This document shows, in pieces, positions 17,986 through 33,868 of a DNA stretch of 64,000 nt. Source of the DNA: Thermoproteota archaeon (lineage in GTDB: Archaea; Korarchaeota; Korarchaeia; Korarchaeales; Korarchaeaceae); the NCBI GenBank assembly GCA_027492205.1, contig JAOZFN010000014.1, forward strand, positions 32,001-96,000, written 5' to 3'. The position numbers were made by a program, and so were the translations under genes. The stretch's first letter is position 1; each line of letters begins with the position of its first letter. The notes under the pieces were generated by a model. That model was not told the DNA's origin and did not search any database. It saw nothing but the letters and a program-made list of their open reading frames with translations.

Positions 17986-18121
17986 TGCCAAAACTAGATT
18001 CTGCAGTGGTGCCGATCGCATCAGAGCCCACTCACGCGAGTAGATCCTGCGACGCCCGCCTGCCGGTCGCGGGCAGCCAATCGTTAAAAATTGAGCCGAA
18101 TGAGTCGCCAAGATCGGGCAC

Positions 18122-18736: not shown

Positions 18737-20141
18737 GGGTCCCTCCCTCAGGGAGAGGTGGACGCTCAAGTGGTGGGCCAGGGTGCACGGGGGCTGCAAG
18801 ATCCCCCTGCACGCCCTAAGCCCGCTCAACGGCCTCGGCGGCCTGGCGTTCCTCATGCTCCTGATCGAGGCCGTGACCGGCATCATCCTGGGCATGTACT
18901 ACGAGCCCAGGTTCAACGAGGCCAACCTGGCCTACGAGAGCGTTGTCGCCATCACCGAGAACCTCAAGTACGGCTGGCTCCTCAGGGGAATTCACTACCA
19001 CGCCGCCAACCTGATGATCGTGCTCAGCCTGCTCCACTTCCTGAAGACCTACATCGCCGGCAACTACCGAGAGCCGAAGGGCCTCTGCCACGTGGTCGGC
19101 ATCCTGACCGGCCTCCTGGCCATACTGGCCTCCATCACGGGATACTCGATGAGGGCCGACCACATAGGGGCGGAGGCGATCCTCATCGGCCAGACGCTGG
19201 TGAAGTACATGCCCATGGGGGGCCTGCTCTTCAGGATGGTCTACGGGGTCGGCACCATGGACGACGCCCTCATCAGGTACAACGCCTACCACTACGCCCT
19301 CGGGGCCCTGCTGATAGGGCTTGTCCTCCTCCACGTGTGGTTCAGCCACAGGCACCACGCCGCCCCTCCCATGGACGACGGGCCCTCCATCCCCGCGATG
19401 CCCGTCTTCCCGAACTTCCTGCTGTCCGTCCTGTCGGGGGTGTTCATGGTCCTAGGCGGGTTGGTGCTGCTCAGCGTCGCGTTCCCTCCCCACCTAGGCG
19501 TGAAGTACGTGCCGGGAGAGCCCGTCCCGCCCGGCGTGCCGGAGTGGTACATGGTGGGAGACTACACCCTCATCAAGAGCGGCATAAACCCGGTGATCGC
19601 GGGCATGGTCGTACCGCTCCTGGCCGTGACCCCGATAGCCCTCATGCCCTGGATAGACAGCTCTGGGCCCAGGCACCCCAGGCACAGGAGGTTCGCGATG
19701 ACCTACCTGTCGGTGTTCATGGCCGAGTTCACCCTCATGACCGTGTGGGGTTACCTGACCCCGGGTCAGCAGGTCCTGCTCTCGCAGCAGCTTCCGGCGG
19801 CCCTGGCCGTGGCGGTGCTGGCCGCGATCCCGGCCCACTGCGCCACCAGGCCGAGGGTGGTCAAGTTCGGGGCCCCGGAGGCCAAGAGGGTGGAGAAGAA
19901 GCCGATCCTGCCGTGGAGGAATATAGCATCGTGGGTCATGGCGATGCCAGTCGGCGTGGTGACGGCCCTTCTGGGGTGCCAGGTGGCTCTGGCGCTGCTG
20001 GGGTGGTACTGGAACCACCTGGGACTCCAGCGGCTATACGCAATGTCACTGGGCGCCTCGCTGTTCGCGCTCGGGGTCGTGCTGCTGGTGGCCAAGTCGG
20101 CGCTATTCGATCTCGACATGCTAAGGAGGAGGCCTACGTGA
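18720..20141 (+). CDS. Cytochrome b (bc complex)
   Basis: Four heme His ligands (RGIHYHAAN...LHF; YHY...LLHVW), PEWY motif and multiple TM helices. Confidence 0.93.
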   Translation: MSRASEGPSLRERWTLKWWARVHGGCKIPLHALSPLNGLGGLAFLMLLIEAVTGIILGMYYEPRFNEANLAYESVVAITENLKYGWLLRGIHYHAANLMIVLSLLHFLKTYIAGNYREPKGLCHVVGILTGLLAILASITGYSMRADHIGAEAILIGQTLVKYMPMGGLLFRMVYGVGTMDDALIRYNAYHYALGALLIGLVLLHVWFSHRHHAAPPMDDGPSIPAMPVFPNFLLSVLSGVFMVLGGLVLLSVAFPPHLGVKYVPGEPVPPGVPEWYMVGDYTLIKSGINPVIAGMVVPLLAVTPIALMPWIDSSGPRHPRHRRFAMTYLSVFMAEFTLMTVWGYLTPGQQVLLSQQLPAALAVAVLAAIPAHCATRPRVVKFGAPEAKRVEKKPILPWRNIASWVMAMPVGVVTALLGCQVALALLGWYWNHLGLQRLYAMSLGASLFALGVVLLVAKSALFDLDMLRRRPT

Positions 20142-20164
20142 ACGTGGCGTGTCGGAAGGGGAAC

Positions 20165-22297
20165 TCAATTCGGTCCCCCGGGAGTAGCCGCCCTGAACCG
20201 CCAGGTGTCGGATCCGTCCGGAACCCTCTGCCAGGTGCGGCCGTCATCCCGAGTGTCCCTCATCAGTATGGTGAAGTCGACGAGCTTCCCCCTGCTGTCT
20301 ATAAGCTGGACGCACTCATTTCTGTTGTCCAGCCACCTGCCAGAGGGGAGGAAGACGTAGTACGGCTGCCACGGCCAGATTATCGCGAACGGAATCTCCC
20401 GCTCCGCCGGCTCTCCGTGGAGCGCCACGACCCTCCACCCCCGGATGATGACCGGGTACCAGTTTGGATTGTACAGCTCCACCCACTCACCGTCCGCGTC
20501 CCCCCCTTCTGGGTTGAGCTCCACCTCGTTCACGTACACCAGGTGACTCGGCCTCTGCACGACGGCGTACATCCTCCACGCCGCGGTCCCCGACTCTGTG
20601 TCTCCGTCGGTGAAGTGTATCAGGAGGGCCCCCTCGTGAGTCCCGGGGGACGCCGAACCGGCCTCTATCCTGAACGTCACGGCGGCATATCCTCCCGGGG
20701 CTATGGTGGCCTCTCCCACCTTTCCGGCATCCCTCCTCCAGACGAGGGTACCGCCCACCCTCACCTTGTAGATCAGGTCGACCATCTCGCCTGTCGGCTC
20801 GGCCCAGACGTACTGGGTCTCGTCGTCGTAATTCACAAGAACCACTATTCCGTTCCTCACGCTGACCTCGCCCTGTCCAACTATCCCGAGGTCGATTAGT
20901 ATCTGACCGTCGGTGACGTTGCTCCAGTACCGGTCGCCCGTGGCCACGTTGGCCCCCCCTGGGAGGACTATTGAGACCCGCCCTGAGAGTCCCCAGACGC
21001 CATACTCGCTCGCGCTCGCGTACCCTGAGGAGGCCAGCAGTGAGAGGGCGACCAGAGCGACCGCCGCTAGCTTCACTTCCCCCGCCAGCCTCAGCTCCGA
21101 CCTGACCCTGGGATGAGCCCGCCTCCCAGTCATCTCCTCGAGATCTCTCACTATCTCTGCGAGAGTTATCACCTCTTCGTCGCTGAGCCTTCCCCTCGCC
21201 GCCGCAAATCGCCTGGGCAGCTCCTCAAGCATCTGCTCCAGGACGTCTCCCTTTTCCCTGTAGAGGAGCAAGAAGACAACGGGAAGAGCGGAGATAAGTG
21301 CTACGACTAGCGAGTTACCAAAGATTATTCCCGCGAGGGGGTCTAGGTGGGAGAGTCTCTCGAGGGTCGAGTCCGGCAGGATCATGCCGAAGGTGACGCT
21401 CCATATGTGGATCTTCCCACCGAGTTTGACCACACCCTCACTCTGAGGGGCCAGAACGGGCACCCTGAGTTCCACCCTCCCCCCGGCCGGGACGCTGACC
21501 ACCCGCGCGGGCAGCTCTACCATATCCCAAAGCTCTCCCTCCGGGCTCAGTACGGCGGTCGTCGGAAGCATTCCGTCGTTTTCTACCGTTATAGTGAGGT
21601 TCGCCGACCCGCCCGGGGGAAGCGCCACGCTGGTGCCCATCCCCACGGACTCTCTGAGCCTCGGATCCACAATAACCGTGAACCCGACGACGTCGCTGTT
21701 CATCACCCCGAGGATCCCCATCATGACCATCGCCACGAGGACTGCCATCAGCACGCCCGCACGGCCTCCCCTCTCCTTCCTCTCGAGGATTGAGGGTCCG
21801 ATCAGCAGTCCCATGACCACAGCGGATGTCGCGAACAGGCCCGCCGGGTTCGTGAGCACAGACCTCAGCCCGGGACCCAGGTAGATGGCCAGGTAGCCCA
21901 CCCTAGGTACCTTGATCGGCCGACCGCCGAGCGAAAGGGCCCTCCCCCTGACCTGAGAGATGGGGGTGTACTCCACTCCGCATGCCTCCTGATCCGTCAG
22001 CTCGTTCGCATCGCCCTTCGTTACGATACCCTGGTGCGTCACTTCGACGACCCTGTGGAGGACCTCGTACCCGTTGCAGATCCTGACAAGCACTATGTCC
22101 CCCACCTCGACGCCCTTAATGGGCCAGACCACCACCAGGTCTCCCCTCTGAAGGGTGGGCCTCATGGACCCCGAGGTAACGACGCGGAGGGGGTACGGAA
22201 CGCCCAGGAAGGTGGAGGCGATGAAAAACAGAGAGAGGGCGAGCGCGCTCAGGAGGGCCGCATCAGCAGCCACCCTCAGAGCGCGCCGCCAGGTCAT
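20165..22297 (-). CDS. S26B/SipW-type signal peptidase I fused to an Ig domain, internal signal peptide, fibre-subunit paralog and lamin-tail domain
   Basis: VTSGSMRPTL.RGD, VLHRV, TKGDAN and VPRVGY motifs; internal VKLAAVALVALSLLASSGYASA; C-terminal LTD motif YVNEVELNP.G.D..GEWVELYNP. Confidence 0.88.
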   Translation of the reverse strand: MTWRRALRVAADAALLSALALSLFFIASTFLGVPYPLRVVTSGSMRPTLQRGDLVVVWPIKGVEVGDIVLVRICNGYEVLHRVVEVTHQGIVTKGDANELTDQEACGVEYTPISQVRGRALSLGGRPIKVPRVGYLAIYLGPGLRSVLTNPAGLFATSAVVMGLLIGPSILERKERGGRAGVLMAVLVAMVMMGILGVMNSDVVGFTVIVDPRLRESVGMGTSVALPPGGSANLTITVENDGMLPTTAVLSPEGELWDMVELPARVVSVPAGGRVELRVPVLAPQSEGVVKLGGKIHIWSVTFGMILPDSTLERLSHLDPLAGIIFGNSLVVALISALPVVFLLLYREKGDVLEQMLEELPRRFAAARGRLSDEEVITLAEIVRDLEEMTGRRAHPRVRSELRLAGEVKLAAVALVALSLLASSGYASASEYGVWGLSGRVSIVLPGGANVATGDRYWSNVTDGQILIDLGIVGQGEVSVRNGIVVLVNYDDETQYVWAEPTGEMVDLIYKVRVGGTLVWRRDAGKVGEATIAPGGYAAVTFRIEAGSASPGTHEGALLIHFTDGDTESGTAAWRMYAVVQRPSHLVYVNEVELNPEGGDADGEWVELYNPNWYPVIIRGWRVVALHGEPAEREIPFAIIWPWQPYYVFLPSGRWLDNRNECVQLIDSRGKLVDFTILMRDTRDDGRTWQRVPDGSDTWRFRAATPGGPN

Positions 22298-22331
22298 GAT
22301 GCCCCTCTAGCTAGACCAGCTGGCGACTAGA

Positions 22332-22898
22332 TTAACTCTCCGGACTGCCGGGGCTGGACGGGGTGCCGCTCGCGCCCTGCTCCATGCCCTGCATCTGTAC
22401 CGTGAACGCCTGGTCGGATCCCAGCGGGGCCGTCGGGCCTATGCTCAGCATCACCCCGACGGTACCAGTCTCATCGCTGTCAAGTGTGAGCGGGTCGCTC
22501 TGGGTTATCTGGGTCCACGAGCTCCCGGTCCACTTGTAGAACGTCAGGCTCACCCCGCTGGGGAGCCCACTCGTCTCGAACCAGAAGACCCACGTCTCGT
22601 CGTCGTAGTTGGTCACGTTGAAGGCAGCCATGGCCTTGAAGGTCATCCCCCTCGCCCAGGGACCGAAGTCGCACTCGATCATGCTGGAAGAGTTGACGTA
22701 GCAGACGTTGTGGGCCGAGGCGCCGGGGCCTTTCACCGTGTCCAGGCCGGGTATTATCGCAATGTTGGCGCTCTGCGGGGCTACTATGCTGACCCTGGCC
22801 CCGATGCCCGCCTGCATGTACTCGTAGGCCCTGACTCCCACCGAGAGCGTTAGCATCAGGAAGGTGAGGGCCAGCGCGGCCCTTCTCCAGTTGGCCAT
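22332..22898 (-). CDS. Secreted putative fibre/pilus subunit (TasA/DUF1102-like; likely substrate of the adjacent peptidase)
   Basis: Signal peptide MANWRRAALALTFLMLTLSVGVRA, beta-rich mature domain, clear paralogy to the domain inside 20165-22297. The ORF-track extension to 23090 is AT-rich promoter DNA. Confidence 0.7.
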   Translation of the reverse strand: MANWRRAALALTFLMLTLSVGVRAYEYMQAGIGARVSIVAPQSANIAIIPGLDTVKGPGASAHNVCYVNSSSMIECDFGPWARGMTFKAMAAFNVTNYDDETWVFWFETSGLPSGVSLTFYKWTGSSWTQITQSDPLTLDSDETGTVGVMLSIGPTAPLGSDQAFTVQMQGMEQGASGTPSSPGSPES

Positions 22899-22899
22899 G

Positions 22900-23408
22900 G
22901 CCAACACCGCTATACTGTTTAGCCCACCTCCTCTATTAATGTTGGCACCTCTGCTTCTATTGCAAGCAATTGACTTGAAATTCATGCGATATACCGGGCA
23001 TTCTCCCCCATGGAGATATGTTTGAACAATATCTTTAATTTCCTCCGATTGATTTTCATTTTCTCTCATATTAATCAAAACATCTTTCATAAATTGGGTA
23101 TTAAAGTTTACTGCGTGCGGATCTGCAGGAGGCGAAGCTCAGGAGTGAGAAGAGTTACGGAGGTTCGCTTCCCAACTCGGGGAGCCTTGGAAATCGCCTC
23201 AGCCTGTACGTCTTCTCTATCCTGGGCTCTGACCGATCCCCTCTCGCCAAGAATCTCAGATAGGGACTTCAACTCGGTGTAGGAGGAGAAGAGGGCGCGG
23301 GAAAACGTGGTGGAGAATCGTTCAAAGGACTAGACCTCTCATACCCTTCCTCTCGGGCGAGTACGGCAGAGGTAATTAAAATACCGAATGTGTGCTTAAG
23401 AGTTTAAG
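22900..23408. promoter_or_regulatory. Divergent promoter region with inverted repeats
   Basis: AT-rich 22930-23110; ATTGC-AA-GCAAT at 22959-22970; imperfect AGATATGTT-TG-AACAATATCT at 23014-23034; GGTA-N7-TACC near 23371-23385. Confidence 0.55.
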
Positions 23409-25274
23409 ATGAGGCCCACTGGGCGGGCGGCGGACAGGGTGGTGATCCGCCGCCCCATCGTCTTTCTCCTCCTCTCAGGGCTGATGCTCCCAAACGCTCT
23501 CGCGGCCGCCGGAGGTCCACACTCTGGCCGAGTTGTGGTCGGCTGGCGACCCAGAAAGCTCCTCTTCTATTACGGATACCCCAGTCTGTTCAACGGGGCC
23601 GGCGGGAATCTGGAGCGGGCTGCCGCCCAGTTCGACCGCTACGACATCGTGGTCCTAGGGGCCGGCCTCGAGGACCCGGCCCACCCCCAGCACCAGGCCG
23701 CTTCAGCGGTCATAGGACTGAGCGAGGCGCAGTTCTATGGGTACGTCCCGCTTACGCTGCCGATCGGAGAAGTCTGCGAGAGGATAGACGAGTGGGCCGA
23801 CATGGGGGTCGCGGGGGTGTTCCTCGACGAGGGCGGGTACGACTACCTTGCGCCGAGGCTGGGGGGCATCCTGCGGGCCAGGATGCACCAGGTCGAGGCC
23901 GTCCGGTGTGCCAGGGAAAGGGGGCTGGCGGAGGCCCTGAACGCCTGGAACCCCGCAGACGTGCTCGCGTCCTCCCACGGGGAGCCCCCCCTACCGCTCG
24001 GGGAGGGAGACGCGGTGCTGATCGAGAGCTTCGTCTACGGCGCGGGGGAGACTAGGGAGGAGTACCTCTGGCACGTCGACGAGTACGCCCGAATGAAGGT
24101 GAGTGGAGGCCCGGAGTACTGGTGCCTCGTCACCACGGGGGCGGCGAGCGAGCACGAGAACCGACTGGTGGGGTACGACGCCCTGACCTACGCTGGAGAG
24201 ATCTGCGACGCCGTGGCAGTTCAGGAGGACCTTGGGGAGGACTCTACAGTGTTCTACGCGTTCGCCGAGCGGGAGGGAGCGCCCGGATGGCGGAGGATCA
24301 GGGGAATGACGCTGGCCGCCTACTGGGTCGGCGACTTCGACAATCGGACCGAGCTAAGGATCGTGCTGGAGAGGGTCAGGGGCATGTGCCTGAACACGAT
24401 AGCGATTTCTCCCTACTGGGCCACTCCCAACCTGCGATCGACCGAGATAAGGCCGACGGAAGTCACCGTGAGCGACGACGACCTTCGGGCCCTCATCAGG
24501 ATGGCGAAGTCCCTCGGGTTCCGGGTCATGCTGAAGCCCTCCCTGATAGTCGAGACGGGCGAGTGGTTCGCCCTCCTTGATCCGGTGGACAGGGACGCTT
24601 GGTTCGAGTCCTACAGGAGGTTCCTGCTCCACTACGCCGAGATCGCCCAGGAAGAGGGCGTCGAGTATCTGGTGGTGGAGGTGGAGCTCAGCTCGATGGT
24701 CTCAGACGAGAGGTGGTTCGGGCTCATCGACGAGGTTCGGGCCGCGTACTCCGGCCTCATAGGGTACGCCCAGCCGCAGGGTGGGGAGTTCAACCCCCAG
24801 GAGGCCCTGCCCGTGTTCGCGGAGGGGGTCGACTTTATCGGGATAGACGCCTACTACCCCCTGCCCTCGGGGAACCTCTCCGAGATCGCGGGGGCCTGGA
24901 GGGAGATTCACCTGAGGAGGATAGAGCCGCTCGGGCTCCTGTTCGGGAAGCCCGTGGTGTTCACCGAGATAGGCTACAGGAGCGTGGTCGGGGCCGCAGA
25001 TGCCCCGTGGGACTGGCGGTCCGACCTGCCGATGAGCGAGGAGGAGCAGGCCCTCCTCTGGAGGGCCTTCCTGGTGGCCGAGGAGCCGCTCGTAGACGGG
25101 TTCGTCTACTGGGCCGAGACGAGCGGCGAGTGGGACCCGTCTACCGACAAGGGATACTCGATCCTCTACAAGGAGGCTGAGCTGGTTGTGAGGGGGGCGG
25201 CGTGCGGGGGACAGAGACCTCGAGGCAGACCGAGTGTGTACAAATCGAGGTCTTTCGGGTTGTTCCCGCTCTAG
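23409..25274 (+). CDS. Secreted two-domain glycoside hydrolase: spherulin-4/GH114-like TIM barrel plus GH113-like TIM barrel
   Basis: Signal peptide; FYGYV...W..MGV.GVFLDEGGYD; second barrel with GFRVMLKP, WFESY, VEL, FIGIDAYYPL and KPVVFTEIGYRS. Confidence 0.8.
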   Translation: MRPTGRAADRVVIRRPIVFLLLSGLMLPNALAAAGGPHSGRVVVGWRPRKLLFYYGYPSLFNGAGGNLERAAAQFDRYDIVVLGAGLEDPAHPQHQAASAVIGLSEAQFYGYVPLTLPIGEVCERIDEWADMGVAGVFLDEGGYDYLAPRLGGILRARMHQVEAVRCARERGLAEALNAWNPADVLASSHGEPPLPLGEGDAVLIESFVYGAGETREEYLWHVDEYARMKVSGGPEYWCLVTTGAASEHENRLVGYDALTYAGEICDAVAVQEDLGEDSTVFYAFAEREGAPGWRRIRGMTLAAYWVGDFDNRTELRIVLERVRGMCLNTIAISPYWATPNLRSTEIRPTEVTVSDDDLRALIRMAKSLGFRVMLKPSLIVETGEWFALLDPVDRDAWFESYRRFLLHYAEIAQEEGVEYLVVEVELSSMVSDERWFGLIDEVRAAYSGLIGYAQPQGGEFNPQEALPVFAEGVDFIGIDAYYPLPSGNLSEIAGAWREIHLRRIEPLGLLFGKPVVFTEIGYRSVVGAADAPWDWRSDLPMSEEEQALLWRAFLVAEEPLVDGFVYWAETSGEWDPSTDKGYSILYKEAELVVRGAACGGQRPRGRPSVYKSRSFGLFPL

Positions 25275-25332
25275 GCCCAATCTCAAGCCTGGTCCCGGTG
25301 GATCGGCCGCCGGAGAATCAGGGGGGCCTTCC

Positions 25333-26700
25333 TCACGGCCTCCATCCAACGACCTCCCTAGACAAGAATCTGAGGAGAGACTCCAGCTTGAGATATGAGA
25401 GCCACAGGGAGTAGGCAACGTGGTAGGGAACGGTCCAGGGAATGAGATCCGCCCTCCCCTTCGACGCCAGAACCGTCGACGTCACGATGATCCCCGGGAC
25501 GTGCTGGAGCGGTAGGAAGGCGAGGAAGGCCAGAGATATCACCTTGAGCGGCACGGATCCCAGGAGCAGACCGACTCCGGTGAGCCTCGAGATCAGGAGG
25601 GCGAGCGGCACGGCCACGTATCCCAACACGCCCAGCGAAGGGAGTAGATACTCGACCAGGATCAGGTACGCGAAGAGGGCGACTCCCACGGCCCCCCGCC
25701 TCAGGCTGAGTATCATCTCCGGGTACTTGGAGAGGACCTGCAGCCCCCCGACGAACCACCTCACCCTCTGGGACCTCAGCTCCCGAGCGCTCCTCACCGG
25801 CTTGGTCCAGGCGACGGCCTGGGGCGCGTAAACCACCCTGTAACCCCTCCTCCAGGTCGAAAGGGACACGTCAAAGTCCTCCGCAACGGTGTCAGGTGGA
25901 ATCAGACCCATCTCCCTCAGTAGGGACCCCTTGTAGATCCCCATGGCCCCCGGGGTTATGAGCACCCACCCCATGTAGTCCTGGACCGTCTTCCCGAGCC
26001 AGTAGGAGGCGGCGTACTCTATCTCCTGCATCCTCTGCAGGAAGGAGGGCCTGATCGACGGGGCCACCCTCACGTCCCCGGAGGCGGCGCCCACGTCCTC
26101 AGCTCGGAGGGCGTCAACGGCCGCCCGGGCCGCCCACCTGGACAGCACGGTGTCCGCGTCCGTGGTTATTATCACCTCCCCCCTGGCCGATGCTATGCCC
26201 AGGGTCAGGGCCTCCGCCTTTCCCCTGTTCTCGGGGTTGACCAGAACCCTGGCCCCAGCGGCGCGAGCGACTTCGGCCGTTGAGTCCGTGGATCCGTCGT
26301 CCACCACTATGACCTCCAGCCTGTCTTGGGGGTAGTCCTGCCTGAGCGCGCCCTTGACGGCCAAACCGACGGAGAGTTCCTCGTTGTAGGCGGGGATGAC
26401 CACCGACAGGCTCGGCGGGTCTCCCCCGTCTTGGATCACGTCGGTGGGGCGGGACCTCACGGCTGCAAGCCAGACCAAGAACAGGAATAGGTAGACGGAG
26501 ACCAGGAACGCCCCGAGGAGGAGGAACAGGGAGATCACCACAAGGCGTACCTGGTCTGGAGGGGCATCCGGGTAGACCAGGGAGACCAGCCACGGGATGG
26601 CCCTGGTCAGGAACACCCCGTGGGCGGCGGTCCCCCCCACGCTGCCCGCGAGGGCAACCGCGTAGACTGCCCTCCTCCTCCAGCGCCCACCAGAGCTCAA
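25333..26700 (-). CDS. Processive GT2 glycosyltransferase (PgaC/IcaA/cellulose-synthase-like)
   Basis: IPAYNEE, DDGSTD, GKA.AL, DADT, AEDFD and QRVRW motifs (D,D,D,QxxRW), with N- and C-terminal TM helices. Confidence 0.92.
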   Translation of the reverse strand: MSSGGRWRRRAVYAVALAGSVGGTAAHGVFLTRAIPWLVSLVYPDAPPDQVRLVVISLFLLLGAFLVSVYLFLFLVWLAAVRSRPTDVIQDGGDPPSLSVVIPAYNEELSVGLAVKGALRQDYPQDRLEVIVVDDGSTDSTAEVARAAGARVLVNPENRGKAEALTLGIASARGEVIITTDADTVLSRWAARAAVDALRAEDVGAASGDVRVAPSIRPSFLQRMQEIEYAASYWLGKTVQDYMGWVLITPGAMGIYKGSLLREMGLIPPDTVAEDFDVSLSTWRRGYRVVYAPQAVAWTKPVRSARELRSQRVRWFVGGLQVLSKYPEMILSLRRGAVGVALFAYLILVEYLLPSLGVLGYVAVPLALLISRLTGVGLLLGSVPLKVISLAFLAFLPLQHVPGIIVTSTVLASKGRADLIPWTVPYHVAYSLWLSYLKLESLLRFLSREVVGWRP

Positions 26701-28139
26701 AGGGCGGTCCCTCCGACGGCCCTCCTAAGGGCGTCGCTCGGGTACAGCTCGGTCAGGCCCCCGACATCCGCGGCGGCGACCGCCCCTATGTCTACCAGCC
26801 ACCTAACCAGCCTGACCACCCTCTCGAGCGGAGCCCCCATCTCCACGGCAATCTCCTCCGGCGTGAGCCCCGGCCTCTCAGAGATGAGGGTCAGCACCCT
26901 CCAGGTGAGCGGGTCGGCGGCCAGGCTCATGGCCAGGACCAGCTCCCTGTCCCTGGGGTGGAACCAGAGCCTCCCGACCCCCCTGACCACCGCCGAGTCG
27001 ATCAGCCCGCAGGCCTCCATGGCTGCCAGCCTGACCTTCGTGGGAATCCTGCACCCCTCACACTCCGCCTCCAGCTCGGGGAGAGACCTCCCAGGGGCGT
27101 CGAGGATCAGGGAATACAGCTTTCCACTGGACCTGTCGGCCCTGAGCACCTTCCTCAAGATGGGCCTCAGGGGCATCAGGGCTGCCACGCCCGCGGCGTA
27201 GGGCGCGTAGCCGACCAGCGTCGCGCCCAACAGGGCCGCGTAGGATAGGCTGGCGAACCACGCCACCCCCCTGGGAGTCGCGATGGACGCCGCCGCGGAC
27301 CTCACCAACGCCGCCGCCCTGTCCCACGCTGGCGGGGGTCTGGGCACCACGCCCTCCTCGGCCGCCGAGAGAGCGCGACCGACCAGCTCCAGGATCCCCC
27401 CGGATTTGACCTTCGACTCCACGACCGGGACCACCGGGTTGAAGGCCAGCGTGAGCACCGCGCCCCCGCCAGAGCGGCAGGCGACGATGGCGGGTGAGCC
27501 GTCCGCTTCTGACGTGGCGAGGACCGAGCAGTTGGAGGATGGTCTCAGGTTCGCCCACCACAGGGAGGGGTCGTAGCTCGCCGTCACCGACCCCCCTACC
27601 TCGTGGATAGTCACAGTCCCGGTGCCGGTGTTCAGCGAGGTGAGCTCAACTCCGGTCAGCTCCTCGAGAGGGGGAGACCAGCTCTGCGAGTAGGTGTTTA
27701 GGCCCACCAGCAGGACCCTCCCCTCGCCCACCACCCGGCCGAGGGCTCGAATCTCCTCCTCGGTGATTGCCCCGCCCTCGGTCCAGGGGACGTTCAGGTC
27801 TGGGATCCAGATTTCGGAGAAGCCTCTCAGGAACCAGGTGTCAGACAGCCTCTCCCTCTCTTCGTCCGCCCCCGAGTACTCAGAGCCGAGGTAGAGGACC
27901 TCAACCCTGATCTCGCGACCCTCTGCCTCAGACAGCGAGCCGGCCAGCTCCTTCCCGAACCTGACGTCCTCGACGTCTGAGGCTACCAGGAGGACGCTGG
28001 GGGGAGGGGTCTGCCCACCCCTGGTCTCACTTCCCCCCTGGACCGCAGAGCCGGGGAGAAGCGCGCCCGCGACCAGGAGCACGGAGGCGGAGAGGGCGAT
28101 AAGCAGAAGAGGCCGAGGGGCTGACTGGGATCTGGACAA
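26697..28139 (-). CDS. Membrane protein with extracellular GATase1-like domain and C-terminal winged-HTH domains
   Basis: Signal peptide, PAIVACRSGGGAVLTLAFNP, TM helix, then LTLISERPGLTPEEIA...VRWLVDIGAV. Confidence 0.75.
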   Translation of the reverse strand: MSRSQSAPRPLLLIALSASVLLVAGALLPGSAVQGGSETRGGQTPPPSVLLVASDVEDVRFGKELAGSLSEAEGREIRVEVLYLGSEYSGADEERERLSDTWFLRGFSEIWIPDLNVPWTEGGAITEEEIRALGRVVGEGRVLLVGLNTYSQSWSPPLEELTGVELTSLNTGTGTVTIHEVGGSVTASYDPSLWWANLRPSSNCSVLATSEADGSPAIVACRSGGGAVLTLAFNPVVPVVESKVKSGGILELVGRALSAAEEGVVPRPPPAWDRAAALVRSAAASIATPRGVAWFASLSYAALLGATLVGYAPYAAGVAALMPLRPILRKVLRADRSSGKLYSLILDAPGRSLPELEAECEGCRIPTKVRLAAMEACGLIDSAVVRGVGRLWFHPRDRELVLAMSLAADPLTWRVLTLISERPGLTPEEIAVEMGAPLERVVRLVRWLVDIGAVAAADVGGLTELYPSDALRRAVGGTAL

Positions 28140-28210
28140 CTGAAAGCACCTCCCACAGGCTTCAGCCCCTCCCTCGCCCTCTTGAGGCAGGATGGAGCGA
28201 AGGAGGCGGC

Positions 28211-28903
28211 TCAGCGCTGGTCAGCCGCCTCCAGCCTCCTCCAGCCCAGTGGGGCCAAAATCAGTCCCAGGACGGCAGCCACGAACAGGGGGACCTCCGG
28301 AACCTCCTGCCCGTCTATCTTCACGCTATTCGCCGTTCCGTCGGAAGCAATCACTCCGTTCCCCGGGTACAGCCTGTCCCACTTGATCGCGAACTGCTCA
28401 ACGTAGGTGACGGAGATCTCGTCGCCCTCCTTGAGGCTCCCGTCTTCGGTGCTCCAGGTATAACCGTCGACCGTCAGCGTGGTGGCACCCCCCACCACAA
28501 CCTTGACGTTGTAGCTGTGCTCGACCCCACTACCGGTGCAATCGACGTCGAGGTAGCCACTCACCTCCTTCCCGCCGTTGACGCTCACCGACCCGTAGGC
28601 GCCTCCCTCCACGTGCAGCGCGCCCTGACTACCCGAGATGTACCCGTCCTTCCCCACCCGCTCAACCGTCACTGTCACGGAGTCCCCGGGGTTCACCTCC
28701 ACGGGCTTCCCGCTCACCTTTATGGTGCAACTCCCCGCCTTCTCGATTGTGGTCTTTCCTGTCACGAAGTATTTGTTGGATGGCTTCATGGCTTCGAGCC
28801 GGGCGCTGTACGTCTGCGCCTCTGCCATGGCCAGGGAGCCCACCAGCGCCGCCAGCACCAGCAGGGCCAGGCTCCTCCGGACGGACTTACCCAACCTCAT
28901 CAC
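28211..28903 (-). CDS. Surface protein with PEF/VPXXXP-CTERM-like sorting signal (VPEVP)
   Basis: Signal peptide, beta-rich body, C-terminal EVPEVP + TM + WRR; directly downstream of the archaeosortase gene. Confidence 0.8.
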   Translation of the reverse strand: MMRLGKSVRRSLALLVLAALVGSLAMAEAQTYSARLEAMKPSNKYFVTGKTTIEKAGSCTIKVSGKPVEVNPGDSVTVTVERVGKDGYISGSQGALHVEGGAYGSVSVNGGKEVSGYLDVDCTGSGVEHSYNVKVVVGGATTLTVDGYTWSTEDGSLKEGDEISVTYVEQFAIKWDRLYPGNGVIASDGTANSVKIDGQEVPEVPLFVAAVLGLILAPLGWRRLEAADQR

Positions 28904-29487
28904 CCCTCATCACCTCCACCAGGCTCTCGGGGCCGTCCATTAAAAGGAGTCTGGCGCGCGGCGCTAACGGTCCCCCCGGTCGGCCCCCTCGCGGGGAGGA
29001 CGTCTCGGAGCCAGAGCCCCCACATGGTGATCGCGACGACGAGCAGGAGCGCCCCGCCGACGACCCTGTGGGCCAGCCCCACCGCCACCTCCCCGAACGC
29101 CTTGTAGGCCAGCAGGGTGGCGGCGAGCCTCGCCAGGTTGGCCAGGTACAGGGCGGCGAGGCCCTCCGCAACCCCCCAGGCCTTGGCCCTCCACCCGACC
29201 CCGGGGGCGGGCGCGATGAGCGAGGCGTAGAGGGTCATGGACATGGCGCCCGAGCACTCAGCCGTTATGACTATGGACGGCCCCCCTCGCAGGGTCACGA
29301 TCCCGGGACCCGTGACGGCGGACCCCACCCCGACCAGGGAGAGCAGCCAGGCCGTGTGTTTCGCCTCCACGAGCAGTATCGCGTCAGAGGACCTCCAGAA
29401 GGCCAGTGTCAAGCCGGCCATGGCGACGCAGAAGCCGGCGACGTATCTCAGGACGAGCCGTCCGCCCCCTGCCTGCCGAGCAGCCAG
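28900..29487 (-). CDS. Archaeosortase/exosortase family protein
   Basis: ITAECSG (Cys), ANLARL (Arg) and AH (His) with multi-TM topology. Probable CTG start at 29487 after GGAGGTGA restores the first TM helix; the ORF track starts at 29421. Confidence 0.88.
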   Translation of the reverse strand: MAARQAGGGRLVLRYVAGFCVAMAGLTLAFWRSSDAILLVEAKHTAWLLSLVGVGSAVTGPGIVTLRGGPSIVITAECSGAMSMTLYASLIAPAPGVGWRAKAWGVAEGLAALYLANLARLAATLLAYKAFGEVAVGLAHRVVGGALLLVVAITMWGLWLRDVLPARGPTGGTVSAARQTPFNGRPREPGGGDEG

Positions 29488-30728
29488 CGCTCGATCACCT
29501 CCCTTGCCCAGTCCGATAGGGACACGCTGACGGACCTACCGTTCCTGCTGACGGTCACTACGCCGTGAAAGGCCATGACGTCCACGTTCCTCTTCACGGT
29601 CGGGGCCGAGACGCCCAGCCTCCTGGCGAGCCCCCTCACGCTCTCCGGACCGTCGAGGAGTAGGGTCTCTGCCAACCTCCTCCTCACCTCGCTCGCGAGC
29701 AGGCTCCTCAGTCGGGCCTCGTTGGCCATCTCGGGCGGGTAGTATATCCTCCTCCCCAGAAACACGGTGGAGGACACCAGCCCCCTGCTCTCCAGGACGT
29801 AAAGGTGCCACCTGACCGTCGACTCCGGCTCCCCCAGCCTCGACGAGATCTCCCTCAGGTTCAAGCCGGGGTGCCTCCTCAGCAGGCTGAAGATGGCCGA
29901 CCTCTTGCCGTCCCTGAGGGCGTCTGCCCTACGTATCCTAACGACCAGGGACGCGATCAGGGCCTTCCCCCTCCTGGATCTCCTCACCAGCTCCCCCGTG
30001 CCCAGCCCTCCGGCGAGGGCGACGGCGCCGATCAGGGCGGGTGGGGCCGGGTGAGGCCTGGACGTCGCCCTGAGCAGGAGCTCCTCGGTCACCCTCACGA
30101 GGTCCCTGTCTCCAGAGTCCCAGTAGGGCCAGACCGGGTTGAAGGCCAGGGCGAGCACCGCCCCGCCGCCGCACCTCGCCAAGACAGCAGCGGGGCCTCC
30201 GTCTCTGAACCTCGCGAGCACCTCCCCGTCGGTGAACTTCAGCTCGGCTCGACCGTAACTGGCCGGATCGTATTCCACCCCTCCCAGGCCCCCGCTGGGA
30301 CTGAACTCAAGCTCGATCAAGTCGCCCCCGGTTTTGGGGAAGTCCCAGGGGAGTGTCAAGAGTCCCTCGAGCGCGCCCAGGTAGAGGAGGGTGTTTGCGT
30401 CCGCGACCAGCAGGCCGCCCCCCTCGACGTACGACCTGATCGCCCGGGCGACCTCGGGCGGCATGTCCCTCCCGTTCCAGTCGAGGATCACCAGGGCGTT
30501 TGGACGCAGGGAGGACCAGTCTTCGATGTCGCCCGCCCAGGCGACGCGGAGTGGGATGCCGAGAGATTTCAACTCGATTGCGAACCTAAAATCTGGCTCG
30601 TCCAGGGCCACAAAAAGCAGTTCACCGCCGACGGCTGAGGAGGCGCTGATCCCGGCCGACAGCAGGCCCAGCAGGATGCCCAGCGAGAGCGCCCTCGCCA
30701 GCCCCTTCCGGCCGATGGAAATCGGCAC
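29448..30728 (-). CDS. Membrane-anchored transcription regulator: extracellular GATase1-like domain plus tandem ArsR-like wHTH
   Basis: YVEGGGLLV, GPAAVLARCGGGAVLALAFNP, TM helix, IFSLLRRHPGLNLREIS...VRWHLYVLE, second HTH VRGLARRLGVSAPTV. GTG at 30728 lies about 25 nt below an ATAAAAA box. Confidence 0.82.
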   Translation of the reverse strand: MPISIGRKGLARALSLGILLGLLSAGISASSAVGGELLFVALDEPDFRFAIELKSLGIPLRVAWAGDIEDWSSLRPNALVILDWNGRDMPPEVARAIRSYVEGGGLLVADANTLLYLGALEGLLTLPWDFPKTGGDLIELEFSPSGGLGGVEYDPASYGRAELKFTDGEVLARFRDGGPAAVLARCGGGAVLALAFNPVWPYWDSGDRDLVRVTEELLLRATSRPHPAPPALIGAVALAGGLGTGELVRRSRRGKALIASLVVRIRRADALRDGKRSAIFSLLRRHPGLNLREISSRLGEPESTVRWHLYVLESRGLVSSTVFLGRRIYYPPEMANEARLRSLLASEVRRRLAETLLLDGPESVRGLARRLGVSAPTVKRNVDVMAFHGVVTVSRNGRSVSVSLSDWAREVIERWLLGRQGADGSS

Positions 30729-30867
30729 AAGATCTGTTGCGGCGGCGCTCTTTTTATTCGTTTTCGCCGCCAATCGTACTCAGCGAACGCCGAATCCCGG
30801 CGAGTGGGGAAATCGGATCGGGCCGGGGAGACCCCACCAATGGACAGATTGGCGGGGGAGTGAGTCG

Positions 30868-31617
30868 TCATATCTTCCCCGTCAGCCTGGCCCTGAGGGT
30901 CATCCTCTTGAGCTCGGCGATCAGGCTCCCCGGCCTGATGTGCTTGGGGCACACCTCGGCGCACGCGTAGACCTGGTGGCACCTCCAGACTCCGGAGGCC
31001 TCGCTGTCTGCCACCAGGAGCCTCAGGGGCTTCACGTCGTCCCTCTCCCTAGAGTCCACCGCGAACCTGTACAGCTGGGTCAGCGCCGCGGGCCCCAGGA
31101 AGAGCGGGTCCGTCGCGGCCACCGGACACGCGGAGACGCAGGCCCCGCACCATATGCAGTCGGAGGGGGACTTGTACCTCTCGAACTCCATTGGGGAGAC
31201 CCTTGGCTCTCGCACGCCCTCCCTCGGGTAGAGGTAGGGCATTACGGCCTCCATCTGCCTCAGGAACGGCTCTATGTCCACGACGAGGTCCTTGAGCACC
31301 CGGAAGTGGGCCAGGGGCTCCACCTTCACCCTCCTGCCCAGGTCCGCGATCTGGGTCTCGCAGGCCAGCCTCTGCACCCCGTTTATCATCATGGCGCAGG
31401 AGCCGCAGATCTTGGCCCTGCAGCTGTACCTGAACGACAGGGTGGGGTCGAGCTCCTGCAGGATGTAGAGCAGCCCGTCGAGGACCGTCATGCCCCTCCG
31501 GTAGGGGACCTCGTACTCCACGTAGTAGGGGGCCCTGTCCCTCCTAGGGTCGAATCGGAAGACTGTGAACCTGACGGTCTCGCCCTCCCGAACCCGCCCG
31601 GGCATTCGCCGACTCAC
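30868..31617 (-). CDS. sdhB: Succinate dehydrogenase/fumarate reductase Fe-S subunit
   Basis: SCRAKICGSC...LAC, CIWCGACVSACP and CHQVYACAEVCP motifs. Confidence 0.95.
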   Translation of the reverse strand: MSRRMPGRVREGETVRFTVFRFDPRRDRAPYYVEYEVPYRRGMTVLDGLLYILQELDPTLSFRYSCRAKICGSCAMMINGVQRLACETQIADLGRRVKVEPLAHFRVLKDLVVDIEPFLRQMEAVMPYLYPREGVREPRVSPMEFERYKSPSDCIWCGACVSACPVAATDPLFLGPAALTQLYRFAVDSRERDDVKPLRLLVADSEASGVWRCHQVYACAEVCPKHIRPGSLIAELKRMTLRARLTGKI

Positions 31618-31624
31618 CCCCTCC

Positions 31625-33325
31625 TCAGTACCTCCTCTCCGTGGGCTGCCACTTGGTGATCACCACCGGCTTGTAGTCGAACTCCGGCCCGTCCGGCGTG
31701 TAGAAGGCCAGCGTGTGCTTAAGCCATTTCTCATCGTCTCTCTTCGGGTAGTCCGTGCGGTAGTGCCCGCCCCTGCTCTCCGTACGCCTCAGCGCGCCCT
31801 CGGCCACCACCAGCGCCACGTCGAGCATCCCCTCAATGATGAGGGCGTCCAGCAGGCCCTGATTGAACGGCCCGGGCGGAGCCGGGACACCGGCACTCTC
31901 CCGATACTCCTTTCTCAGCCTCCTGATGGTCTCCACACCCTTCCTGAGACGCTCCTCATCCCTGAAGATCCCCACGTAGTCCCACATGGCCTGCTGCATG
32001 TCCCTCCTTATCCTGTAGGGGTTGGAGTGTCCCTCCTCCCTGCCCCTCTCCAGCAGGACCTTGATCCTTCCCTCGACCTCCTCCAGGGCTCTCTCAACGG
32101 CCTCCTTCCCGTCGAACTCCCTGCGCTCGACGTCCTCGGCGGCCGACGCCCCCGCCCTGGCCCCGAAGACCACGCACTCCAGGAGGGAATTGCCCCCCAG
32201 CCTGTTGGCCCCGTGGACGCTGACGCACGCACACTCGCCGGCCGCGTACAGGCCCTTGATCCTGGCCCTACCGTGCTTGTCTGTCTCTATCCCGCCCATG
32301 GTGTAGTGCTGGCCCGGCTGGACGGGGATCGGCTCCTCCCTCGCGTCGACGCCCGCGAACTTGAGGGCCAGCTCCCATATCTGCGGGAGCCTCTCCATTA
32401 TCAGGTCGGCCCCGAGGTGGGATATGACCAGGTGAACGTACTCGTTCTCGAACCCCCTCCCCTCCAGCACCTCGGTCCATATGGCCCTGGCCACTATGTC
32501 CCTGGGGGCCAGCTCCATCTTCTCCGGGGCGTACCTCTCCATGAACCTCTCGCCCTCGGCGTTGAGCAGGATCCCCCCCTCCCCCCTGGCCGCCTCGCTG
32601 ATGAGGATGTTCGTCCCGTAGAGCGTCGTCGGGTGGAACTGGATGAACTCCATGTCCTCGAGGGGCGCGCCAACCCAGTAGGCCAGGGCCATGCCGAAGC
32701 CGGTGCTGTGGTGGCTGTTGGTGGTCCTGGCGTAGATCCTGCCAGCCCCGCCGGTGGCCATGATCACGGCCTTGGCCTCGTAGGCCTCCAGCTCCCCGGT
32801 CTGGACGTTCATGGCCACGAGGCCCCTCACGCCCTCCTCGTCCCGGGCGAGGCGGAGCACCGCCCTCTCGTTGTAGAAGGTTACCCCCAGCCTGAGGGCC
32901 TGCTGGAACACGGTGTGCATGACCGCGTGGCCCGTCTTGTCGGCCGCGTAGCAGGTCCTCGGGAACCCCGCCCCGCCGAAGGGCCTCTGAGCTATCCGAC
33001 CGTCCTCGAACCTGCTGAAGGGGACGCCCCACCTGTCGAGCTCCAGCACCCTCTCTATCGCGTCCTGACAGTACTCCAGCACCGCGTCCTGGTCGGCCAG
33101 GTAGTCCGCGCCCTTGATCGTGTCGAAGGCGTGCCTCTCGACGCTGTCGCTGGGGTCGGCGTTGCCGAGGGCCGCGTTTATCCCCCCCTGGGCCGCCACC
33201 GAGTGGGACCTCATCGGGTAGAGCAGGCTCACGACGGCCACGTCCGCCCCGCGGAGCTTGGCCTCGACCGCGGCCCTGAGGCCCGCGAGCCCACCTCCGA
33301 CGACGATCACGTCGTGCCTCTCCAA
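31625..33325 (-). CDS. sdhA: Succinate dehydrogenase/fumarate reductase flavoprotein
   Basis: GGGLAG, RSHSVAAQGG, QFHPT, ELAPRD, HYTMGG, HGANRLGGNSL and ESRGGHYR motifs. Confidence 0.97.
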   Translation of the reverse strand: MERHDVIVVGGGLAGLRAAVEAKLRGADVAVVSLLYPMRSHSVAAQGGINAALGNADPSDSVERHAFDTIKGADYLADQDAVLEYCQDAIERVLELDRWGVPFSRFEDGRIAQRPFGGAGFPRTCYAADKTGHAVMHTVFQQALRLGVTFYNERAVLRLARDEEGVRGLVAMNVQTGELEAYEAKAVIMATGGAGRIYARTTNSHHSTGFGMALAYWVGAPLEDMEFIQFHPTTLYGTNILISEAARGEGGILLNAEGERFMERYAPEKMELAPRDIVARAIWTEVLEGRGFENEYVHLVISHLGADLIMERLPQIWELALKFAGVDAREEPIPVQPGQHYTMGGIETDKHGRARIKGLYAAGECACVSVHGANRLGGNSLLECVVFGARAGASAAEDVERREFDGKEAVERALEEVEGRIKVLLERGREEGHSNPYRIRRDMQQAMWDYVGIFRDEERLRKGVETIRRLRKEYRESAGVPAPPGPFNQGLLDALIIEGMLDVALVVAEGALRRTESRGGHYRTDYPKRDDEKWLKHTLAFYTPDGPEFDYKPVVITKWQPTERRY

Positions 33326-33346
33326 GGGCGATCCCCCTCAGCCGGC

Positions 33347-33736: not shown

Positions 33737-33868
33737 GTTGGCTCGGGGGGCCGGGGCCCATTTCTGTTAAAAGATTGTCTTTACCCGAAAGGGGAAGCGC
33801 CTGAAGCCCGGGATCTCCCCCATCGCCCCCCCCGATCCGTCGTTCTGGGATGGTGGGTGCTGGCGGAC

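Follow-up and report, generated by a model that had tools for sequence, protein, structure and literature searches.

Archaea are already known to carry fibre loci with dedicated signal peptidases, among them the published taf-like clusters and the AbpX, AbpA and thread loci (PMC11821415, PMC12337348, 10.64898/2026.01.04.697558, PMC9245690). In the taf-like clusters and the haloarchaeal Tafi/TafE bundling pili, as described in two of these reports, a dedicated two-domain, four-helix TafD-type peptidase accompanies small acidic subunits (150-200 aa) exported by Sec and a second, two-domain pilin-like protein (PMC11821415, PMC12337348). Such clusters are further marked by DUF1102/TafA-like pilins that leave the cell through Sec or Tat, a DUF5305 (TafG) accessory protein and donor-strand exchange as the mode of assembly. 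The tapA-sipW-tasA locus of Bacillus and the archaeal AbpA, AbpX and thread loci are reported to pair major and minor subunits with a dedicated signal peptidase I (PMC9245690, 10.64898/2026.01.04.697558, PMC9715654), and filaments held together by donor-strand exchange are described as typically having a major and minor paralogue pair (PMC9715654, PMC11821415). Among sorting systems, XrtG is reported to consist of a target, an exosortase and glycosyltransferases (PMC12854382).

The window, a 64,000-nucleotide stretch of DNA from a korarchaeal genome (G000), contains a 10.7-kb island between the genes for cytochrome b and SdhB. An earlier note on this DNA had described eight contiguous genes here, and all eight open reading frames are present. 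They form three cell-surface cassettes: a fimbria-like fibre kit (cassette A), a secreted mannanase-type hydrolase (cassette B), and a sugar-polymer synthase with a sortase and a single target (cassette C). The features are as follows.

18720-20141, left flank: cytochrome b, identity confirmed by Pfam
20142-30867, no strand: the island, strain-specific, between cytochrome b and sdhB
20165-22898, minus: cassette A, p2 and p1
20165-22297, minus: p1 as a whole, 710 aa, a fusion of a peptidase, a p2 paralogue and a putative lamin-tail domain
21263-22297, minus: p1 residues 1-345, TafD-type signal peptidase I made up of peptidase and extracytoplasmic beta-rich domains plus four hydrophobic helices
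20165-21262, minus: p1 residues 346-710, same frame, with a cytoplasmic linker, a signal-peptide-like helix ending in ASA, a p2-like domain and a putative lamin-tail domain
22332-22898, minus: p2, secreted acidic protein of 188 aa, putative major fibre subunit
22899-23408, no strand: lower-GC intergenic region between the divergent p2 and p3, read from the sequence
23409-25274, plus: cassette B, p3, 621 aa, with a signal peptide, a conserved N-terminal domain and a C-terminal GH113 domain
25333-30773, minus: cassette C, p4 to p8
25333-26700, minus: p4, membrane GT2, cellulose-synthase/PgaC-like
26697-28139, minus: p5, membrane protein with an ectodomain and a weak C-terminal wHTH, paralogue of p8
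28211-28903, minus: p6, secreted, 230 aa, with a VPEVP-TM-RR C-terminal sorting signal
28900-29421, minus: p7, short (173 aa) archaeosortase/exosortase-family protein
29448-30773, minus: p8, membrane-bound, ectodomain plus two wHTH domains
30868-31617, right flank: sdhB, identity confirmed by Pfam

We searched positions 17000-34000 of the window as DNA against 31 genomes of the family, G000 included. The island is missing between cytochrome b and sdhB in three of the four other genomes of the genus, where the two genes lie 40 bp (G003), 165 bp (G002) and 155 bp (G004) apart. In the closest relative (G001) the flanks are 97% identical, and the p3 hydrolase is the sole gene kept between them. 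Cytochrome b and sdhB are also near each other in G007, G015 and many g3 genomes, and their adjacency or near-adjacency extends over the genera g1, g2, g3 and g4 of the family; because it is found across four genera, this arrangement represents the simpler ancestral state. The GC3 and tetranucleotide composition of the island are host-like, and no tRNA gene, flanking repeats or integrase was found at it. Within the island, p2/p1 and p3 are transcribed divergently, whereas p3 and p4 converge.

The N-terminal part of p1 belongs to the archaeal signal peptidases I (TIGR02228, 59.7 bits, cut-off 51.85). A transmembrane scan places helices at residues 15-33, 153-171, 181-199 and 324-342; the sequence between the helices includes a beta-rich stretch. 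In all five genomes searched, residues 10-338 match peptidases of 356-387 aa over their full length (E 1e-18 to 1e-23). Two of these five loci were examined, and both lie within clusters of three DUF1102 genes, a DUF5305 gene and a wHTH gene, an arrangement that together with the peptidase corresponds to the published taf-like cluster (PMC11821415). On this basis p1 carries a TafD-type signal peptidase with a predicted Ig-like ectodomain. It is an extra copy of signal peptidase I, because a better-scoring housekeeping enzyme (90 bits) is encoded elsewhere in G000. The earlier note had called p1 a SipW-type peptidase; the SipW model NF046067 scores it at 34.3 bits (cut-off 190). The AbpX-associated peptidases differ as well, being reported with ten helices (10.64898/2026.01.04.697558), whereas p1 has five. 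Beyond the peptidase, the C-terminal part of p1 is a paralogue of p2 (E 2e-7), and residues 586-674 resemble the Pfam lamin-tail domain LTD at 26.5-28.5 bits (E 2e-6 to 9e-6), below the cut-off of 34.3.

The open reading frame of p2 spans 22332-23090, and its likely start at 22898 gives 188 aa. Its hydrophobic N-terminal signal agrees with the proposal of a secreted subunit, and the predicted mature form has 164 aa and a pI of 4.1. In mature length (~164 aa), pI (~4) and conserved N-terminal acidic and aromatic residues, p2 is similar to the AbpX-like proteins as reported (10.64898/2026.01.04.697558). The first 23 mature residues are conserved across paralogues and orthologues, and the conserved N-terminal strand is amphipathic; the four closest p2-type domains all have E2, Y3, I14, V15 and an NYDDE motif. 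HMM searches yielded no family match for p2, neither to Pfam DUF1102 at E up to 10 nor to Peptidase_M73 (PF12389); the DUF1102 HMM matched nothing in the whole genome, and p2 matched no PDB sequence. Though the DUF1102 HMM misses p2, profile-profile comparison points to a resemblance: hhalign of the p2 family with six DUF1102 proteins, run on shallow alignments and collinear across 123-128 columns, gave probabilities of 65% and 58% (P 6e-5 and 1e-4), against 0.1%, 0.2% and 19% for controls. Nine archaeal PF12389 (TasA-like) proteins gave 5% (A4) and 19% (A7); neither sequence nor profile comparison connects cassette A with Peptidase_M73/TasA. Membership in TasA/SipW/TapA was rejected from the missing PF12389 match and the low SipW score.

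Among 43 genomes of the phylum, p2 was found in two. The second (G025), from another family of the order, encodes a p2 homologue of 49% identity adjacent to a p1 homologue and lacks the other island genes; the neighbours of the pair are unrelated (KaiC-like, enolase, TatD). Beyond the peptidase domain, p1 is matched only by this genome (query 7-583, E 9e-65, 955-aa open frame), and the in-frame peptidase/p2-like fusion is conserved in its 915-aa homologue. Distant p2 homologues sit in signal peptidase operons of another phylum, where two genomes (G326 and G278) carry an unfused version of cassette A: a p2-like gene (182-184 aa) is followed by genes for a secreted protein of 478-479 aa, a signal peptidase I of 382-398 aa with two TM helices plus a beta domain, and a TM protein.

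Judged by these comparisons, cassette A appears closest, among known systems, to the DUF1102 fimbria clusters called taf-like in non-halophilic archaea, with which it shares the peptidase type, the small acidic secreted subunit and the second pilin-like protein outlined above. It differs from them in that the peptidase and the second pilin-like subunit form one in-frame fusion, that there is a single free subunit gene, that p1 ends in a putative lamin-tail domain, and that the host genome lacks a DUF5305 (TafG) gene; the PF17231 model found none at E up to 10, and as a control it picked up locus L098 (50 bits). Cassette A would be a Sec-dependent, taf-like fimbria kit with p2 as the major subunit. 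The p1 peptidase would be dedicated to cutting the signal peptides off the subunits of the cassette, and the pilin-like and putative lamin-tail part of p1, behind the fifth helix, may serve as a tip/initiator or as a membrane-proximal anchor subunit. Polymerisation may proceed by donor-strand exchange, with the conserved N-terminal strand of one subunit inserting into the next. The fibre part has precedents in archaea, in the published taf-like, AbpX, AbpA and thread loci.

Cassette B encodes a secreted protein whose residues 320-584 form a GH113 domain (PF22612, 154.8 bits, cut-off 27). This domain matches the endo-beta-1,4-mannanases 3civ, 4cd6 and 7dvz in the PDB over ~250 residues (E about 1e-22), from which p3 differs by an extra conserved N-terminal domain of ~250 aa. 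The N-terminal half gave 10.7-11.4 bits with Spherulin4 (E 0.13-0.36, two of five homologues), and no PDB sequence matched it; GH135/Spherulin4 was rejected for this domain, as the score stays below the cut-off of 30.2. Seven of the eight family calls made earlier hold up. Of the secreted double glycoside hydrolase, a signal peptide and one GH113 domain were found and the second hydrolase domain was not. Cassette B is best described as a candidate secreted GH113-type beta-glycanase with an additional N-terminal domain. The homologues in G007, G019, G051 and G013 are extended by another C-terminal domain, which G000 and G001 lack. Elsewhere in the family p3 occurs without the other island genes; in G007 and G019 it lies elsewhere in the genome with no adjoining p4-like GT2. 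A hydrolase adjoining a synthase is seen in several bacterial EPS systems. We know of no GH113 enzyme as partner of a PgaC-like synthase, and the suggested pairing of the GH114/GH135/GH153 type does not apply to this mannanase-type hydrolase.

The five genes of cassette C form the tightly packed minus-strand operon described before: p7 and p6 overlap (the p7 stop with the p6 start), as do p5 and p4, and the other gaps are 26 and 71 bp. In the GT2 protein p4, DD134, DAD181 and QRVRW311 represent the D, DxD and QxxRW motifs that processive GT2 enzymes have in general. The PgaC/IcaA PNAG synthase equivalog was rejected for it (TIGR03937, 149 bits, cut-off 422); p4 also matches glycosyltransferase models associated with XrtG (80 bits) and XrtP (48 bits), and within the phylum its best match reaches 37-40% identity. 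The archaeosortase assignment of p7 is borne out by the exosortase/archaeosortase signature TIGR04178 (43.1 bits, cut-off 23), and an alignment of 17 sequences shows Cys56, Asn95, Arg98 and His118 without variation. All named subfamilies tried (ArtA-F, XrtX, XrtG, XrtH and others) were rejected for p7, the best being XrtX (56.3 bits, cut-off 170) and ArtF (50.8, cut-off 150). Only seven p7-like proteins, p7 included, were found at E up to 1e-10 among 1.84 billion representatives. No orthologue of p4, p7 or p8 was found in 43 genomes of the phylum; the nearest relatives of p7 and p8 are 52% (P0003) and 36% (P0153) identical.

The genome encodes one archaeosortase and one VPEVP-tailed protein. 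A regular expression applied to all its open reading frames of at least 80 aa returned three matches, and the motif itself occurs only in p6, in line with the proposed VPEVP target. The p6 protein has an N-terminal signal peptide and a tail of VPEVP, LFVAAVLGLILAPLGW and a C-terminal RR, which reads as the tripartite archaeosortase-target signal of motif, predicted TM helix and basic tail; curated CTERM models gave no match to this tail at E up to 10. Of the two proposed sensor-wHTH proteins, p8 does contain two wHTH domains, whereas p5 has a weak MarR_2 match (E 0.0025), yet shows paralogy to p8 (E 1e-9); a sensor role for either is presumed. In G001, G003 and G007, p8-like regulators adjoin genes of giant surface proteins. 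Within the operon, p4 may synthesise a beta-linked glycan, p7 would process its single substrate p6, and the membrane-tethered p5 and p8 would probably regulate the operon locally.

By analogy, cassette C resembles the bacterial XrtG systems: like XrtG of Firmicutes as described (PMC12854382; TIGR03110, TIGR03111), it unites in an operon one short sortase, one apparent cognate target and a GT2 of the PgaC-like type. On the XrtG models themselves, p4 (TIGR03111, 80 bits) and p7 (TIGR03110, 29 bits) remain far under the family cut-offs. Cassette C differs in its archaeal host, in a VPEVP instead of a Firmicu-CTERM sorting signal, and in the two membrane wHTH genes interleaved in the operon.

Taken together, we think it likely that the locus is a flexible, strain-specific surface island whose three cassettes, including a taf-like fibre kit and an XrtG-like cassette, were inherited independently and are probably independent in function, cassette C being without a comparator locus. 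The distributions of the cassettes speak for a mosaic, G001 having only p3 and G025 only p2 and p1. The earlier note had instead read the eight genes as one self-regulated matrix system, with fibre, exopolysaccharide, hydrolase and anchored adhesin under two wHTH proteins. Contiguity and the envelope theme throughout, a hydrolase next to a synthase as in bacterial EPS systems, and reports of bacterial AbpX-like loci with sortases and regulators (10.64898/2026.01.04.697558) would fit this reading. It is nevertheless quite improbable, as G001 and G025 each hold only one part, p3 stands without a GT2 in G007 and G019, three of the four other genus genomes have none of the cassettes at the site, neither p2/p1 and p3 nor p3 and p4 are codirectional, and GH113 is not known to us as a partner of such synthases. 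The gene-neighbourhood comparison found homologues scattered and cassettes separate in related genomes, the outcome by which the earlier note had said that its reading would be refuted. The observation of eight genes is thus partly confirmed and its interpretation partly supported: a matrix theme is plausible gene by gene, but a single conserved system is not.

Two further readings concern the fibre and the history of the island. That p2 and the C-terminal domain of p1 form no fibre, being ordinary secreted or envelope proteins (e.g. S-layer accessory, adhesin) with a dedicated peptidase, is unlikely: p2 has no family HMM or PDB match, its DUF1102 link of 58-65% comes from shallow alignments and DUF5305 is missing, but 23 conserved N-terminal mature residues are unusual in a plain secreted protein, p2-family genes go with TafD-type peptidases in three lineages, and the major-minor paralogue pair is reported as typical of donor-strand filaments (PMC9715654, PMC11821415). 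Least probable to us is an island ancestral to the genus that relatives deleted fully or in part, instead of piecemeal gain here. The host-like composition, the lack of integrase, tRNA gene and flanking repeats at the site, and p8-type regulators native to the lineage speak for such losses, against which stand the cytochrome b-sdhB adjacency or near-adjacency across g1-g4 and the lack of p2, p4 and p7 orthologues in the other 42 phylum genomes, save p2 in G025.

The independent inheritance of the cassettes may still be compatible with their cooperation in this strain, and selection for co-location could have brought three surface cassettes to the one site.

The eight open reading frames claimed in the earlier note are all present within positions 20165-30773 of the window, flanked by Rieske/cytochrome b genes on one side and SdhB/SdhA/SdhC genes on the other. 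They form three cassettes, named A (genes p2 and p1), B (p3), and C (p4-p8). For comparison with relatives, window positions 17000-34000 were searched as DNA against 31 family genomes (the source genome G000 among them), complemented by direct BLAST. In three genomes of the same genus (G003, G002, and G004), the cytochrome b and sdhB genes are spaced by 40-165 bp and the entire 10.7 kb is absent. Cytochrome b and sdhB also lie close together in G007 and G015 of the same family and in many genomes of genus g3, which makes their adjacency the simpler ancestral state. The congeneric G001 has flanks 97% identical to ours, with the p3 gene alone (92% protein identity) sitting between cytochrome b and sdhB. 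Two G001 contigs, C40 and C23 (loci L007/L008), both break off within the 5' part of p3, and their overlapping stretch is 95.5% (C40) and 88% (C23) identical to the window, a hint of strain heterogeneity in the G001 assembly at this hotspot.

The genes of the three cassettes are distributed separately among relatives. A match to p3 occurs in 10 of 43 genomes of the phylum and p2 is present in two of the 43. The p7 protein is matched in two of 41 relatives, the second match having 32% identity, an internal stop, and an unrelated context. Apart from itself, p4 has matches of at most 37-40% identity, and p8 finds paralogues only (32-38% identity). The p3 homologues of G007 and G019, both of the same family, are located elsewhere in their genomes, with no p4-like GT2 gene beside them. 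The earlier note had joined all eight genes into one matrix-building system and had itself named scattered homologues without conserved synteny as the outcome that would speak against it. The gene-neighbourhood check of relatives returned this outcome, and comparative genomics gives no support to a single unified system. The earlier observation was largely right on the eight genes and most of their families, but not on the unifying interpretation. Judged from these comparisons, the island is probably a mosaic of surface cassettes accreted at one hotspot, which may still cooperate functionally in this one strain.

Three accounts of how the island arose were dropped. A mobile element marked by repeats or a tRNA gene was considered, and neither a tRNA gene nor a flanking repeat was found at the island borders. 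Foreign composition was likewise abandoned, the composition being host-like. Replacement of the 3' end of p3 by the insertion is at odds with the G000 and G001 proteins, which both end in FGLFPL.

Cassette A encodes a peptidase and a small secreted protein. The p1 protein (710 aa) begins with a signal peptidase I of the archaeal type (TIGR02228, 59.7 bits against a cut-off of 51.85). The earlier label of a SipW-type peptidase holds for the peptidase but not for the type, the SipW model reaching 34 bits against a cut-off of 190. G000 encodes a separate housekeeping signal peptidase that scores better than p1, and p1 is therefore a dedicated copy. By hydropathy scan, the N-terminal part of p1 comprises helix 1, the peptidase domain, helices 2 and 3, a beta-rich ectodomain, and helix 4. 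These are followed by a basic linker of ~60 aa, helix 5 ending in ASA, a p2-like domain, and a lamin-tail domain (LTD). The C-terminal third is paralogous to p2 (E 2e-7), and the LTD match at the C-terminal end is sub-threshold.

At its longest, the p2 open reading frame spans 252 aa, against 217 aa in the public gene call (P0002). The likely start of p2 is placed as follows.

22898, minus strand: Met codon at which p2 probably starts and the signal peptide begins

The upstream extension (window 22899-23090), which falls within the lower-GC intergenic region 22899-23408, is probably untranslated. Mature p2 (window 22335-22826, minus strand) has a pI of 4.1. It has no match among domain-family models, and a protein-homologue search with p2 returned the query itself only. 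PDB sequence and profile searches with p2 and its family, and a PDB search with the g39 homologue, were blank or at chance level. E2, Y3, I14, V15, A20, and N21, as well as an NYDDE motif, are invariant across the four p2-like domains. A p2-domain profile matched seven of 401 genomes of other phyla; in three of these the match was a real small homologue, and all three are among the 17 genomes of a single genus in another phylum. Profiles from two alignments of p2-family domains (A4 and A7), searched against further sets from other phyla, gave only partial matches inside giant open reading frames in 9 of 133 genomes, and none in sets of 2 and 329 genomes.

The same gene pair is found in G025, which belongs to another family of the order. 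A 187-aa p2 homologue (49% identity) is followed there by a 915-aa open reading frame with the p1 layout, including the in-frame p2-like domain. The neighbours of this pair are KaiC-like, enolase, TatD, and radical-SAM genes, and none of the cassette B or C genes is found at the locus. At ~30% identity the fusion frame is still open, evidence against an artefact of assembly. By sequence comparison, the in-frame peptidase-pilin fusion is real and conserved in two archaeal families, and cassette A is a conserved unit. In two genomes of another phylum (G326 and G278), an operon encodes a p2-like protein (182-184 aa), a secreted protein (478-479 aa), a signal peptidase I (382-398 aa), and a membrane protein. 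This peptidase carries two further helices and a beta-rich ectodomain and is not fused to the p2-like protein. Three lineages thus show the p2 family linked to a long dedicated peptidase. At the G326 locus (L096, contig C9, 9747-14544), transglutaminase-like, peptidase-C25-like, and double-wHTH regulator genes adjoin the operon.

The peptidase part relates cassette A to a described class of fimbriae. Residues 1-345 of p1 (query 10-338) align full-length to 356-387-aa peptidases in all five genomes searched in a further phylum (E 1e-18 to 1e-23). In the two loci inspected, the peptidase gene lies among three DUF1102 genes, one gene each for DUF5305 and wHTH proteins, and a gene whose secreted product has 305-462 aa. 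Such loci are the "taf-like cluster of non-halophilic archaea" of PMC11821415. That paper describes TafD as a two-domain, four-helix peptidase needed to process the fimbrial subunit TafA, and models taf-like DUF1102 proteins as donor-strand pilins. The p2 protein goes undetected by the Pfam DUF1102 HMM. When its family was aligned with six DUF1102 proteins by hhalign, the probability was 65% and 58% (P 6e-5 and 1e-4) across 123-128 collinear columns, compared with 0.1% for a reversed template, 0.2% for an unrelated ectodomain alignment, and 19% for TasA-like proteins. Whereas taf-like clusters contain a DUF5305 gene, none was found in the whole G000 genome, and in cassette A the peptidase is fused to the pilin-like domain. 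Cassette A can be read as a divergent, minimal taf-like fimbria kit. If cleaved at ASA|SEY, the fused pilin-like and LTD part would be a two-domain tip or initiator analogue (TafC-like); if uncleaved, it would be a membrane-held terminator (TafF-like). In the phylum with taf-like clusters, a second signal peptidase of 310 aa lies within ~2 kb of Peptidase_M73 (TasA-like) genes (G037:C1:1781216-1783846 and G116:C1:15926-18486), and these genomes therefore have two kinds of fibre/peptidase pair each.

Cassette B consists of p3 alone, whose product carries a signal peptide and, with 154.8 bits, a GH113 domain. Endo-beta-1,4-mannanases of solved structure are homologous to it (E ~1e-22). The two-domain form is conserved in G001 (92%), G007 (56%), G019 (47%), and G051 (44%). 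Its N-terminal domain (p3 residues 45-296) is well conserved but has no family assignment: it matches nothing in the PDB, and Spherulin4 comes up only at E 0.13-0.36, in two of five homologues. The proposed double glycoside hydrolase is hence borne out for one domain and unproven for the other, and the suggested analogy with GH114/GH135/GH153 hydrolases is inapplicable to the domain identified. The p3 homologues of G007, G019, G051, and G013 (L014, L015, L016, and L018) have an extra C-terminal domain of ~130-200 aa, which is absent in G000 (window 23409-25274) and G001.

The genes of cassette C are tightly packed, and their predicted families agree with the earlier description. The QxxRW synthase p4 is a membrane GT2 with DD, DAD, and QRVRW motifs, closest to PgaC-type models, far under their cut-offs (149 vs 422), and also matching XrtG- and XrtP-associated GT models. 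The archaeosortase p7 bears the exosortase/archaeosortase signature (43 bits vs cut-off 23), with Cys56, Asn95, Arg98, and His118 invariant across 17 relatives. It cannot be placed in any named subfamily: its highest scores are 56 for XrtX (cut-off 170) and 51 for ArtF (cut-off 150). Its relatives are rare: 220 proteins at E <=1e-3 and seven at E <=1e-10 among 1.84 billion representatives, the best with 52% identity. A protein-homologue search with p7 returned the query itself only, and a locus search of genome contigs with the p7 alignment and with P0153, the nearest relative of p8, gave no match. A metagenome locus search yielded one ~2-kb contig (L026, 2009 bp), in which a short archaeosortase (P0004, 38% identity) is divergent from an adjoining 437-aa secreted open reading frame that looks, by eye, polysaccharide-deacetylase-like.

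The VPEVP target p6 consists of a signal peptide and a VPEVP-helix-RR tail, which matches no curated CTERM model. G000 has one archaeosortase and one VPEVP protein, and their genes overlap, which suggests a one-to-one p7-p6 sortase-target pair. According to PMC12854382, a "complete XrtG system" comprises XrtG, two GTs, and a CTERM protein. Because of this composition and the GT models matched by p4, cassette C would, by analogy, work like such a system, but it is no member of it.

The paired wHTH proteins also stand, with two wHTH domains in p8 and p5 as its paralogue. A protein-homologue search with p8 gave a single relative (P0153, 36%), and the p5/p8 ectodomain has chance matches only in the PDB (E >=0.36). 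The lineage has membrane wHTH proteins of the p8 type of its own. In G001, G003, and G007, their genes adjoin a giant surface-protein gene and a small TM-wHTH gene, as would be expected if they regulate surface genes locally. This three-gene set (L056, G003:C5; L057, G007:C4; L058, G001:C61) is conserved in the genus and G007. Its products are a giant surface protein (2581-2845 aa), a TM + wHTH protein (150-153 aa), and a p8-like double-wHTH membrane protein (402-411 aa). A ~620-aa gene comes next in two of the three loci.

A bolder reading, which we consider unlikely, takes p1 as a signal peptidase covalently fused to its own substrate, serving as the platform of a new, DUF5305-independent class of archaeal donor-strand fimbria, with fimbria, glycan, and anchored protein cooperating in a matrix. 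Acting in cis or in trans, the TafD-type peptidase of p1 would cut the signal-like helix inside the protein (ASA|SEY), releasing or positioning the pilin-like/lamin-tail subunit exactly at the site of p2 processing. The enzyme would thereby double as a fibre nucleation and anchoring platform. Brought into one island in this strain, the fimbria, the GT2-made glycan, and the archaeosortase-anchored protein with its new VPEVP signal would then cooperate in matrix building. New here are the conserved peptidase-pilin fusion without DUF5305, although published taf-like/AbpX family lists may already hold fusions or p2 relatives; the archaeal XrtG-like cassette with its unmatched sorting signal; and the accretion of both at one hotspot.

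The biology of archaeal biofilms and surface filaments is young, the taf-like, AbpX, AbpA, and thread systems having been described only in 2022-2026. The fusion locus would add a divergent branch, in which a dedicated peptidase is in frame with a pilin-like subunit. This two-gene system is simple enough to ask how fibres are primed and anchored without chaperone, usher, or DUF5305. Cassette C would be an archaeal counterpart of minimal exosortase-plus-glycosyltransferase systems, in which one sortase is paired with one target and the VPEVP signal is uncatalogued. The island also carries the lesson that contiguous, thematically alike surface genes may constitute a mosaic flexible island rather than a single machine, a distinction that matters for "biofilm loci" predicted from metagenome-assembled genomes.
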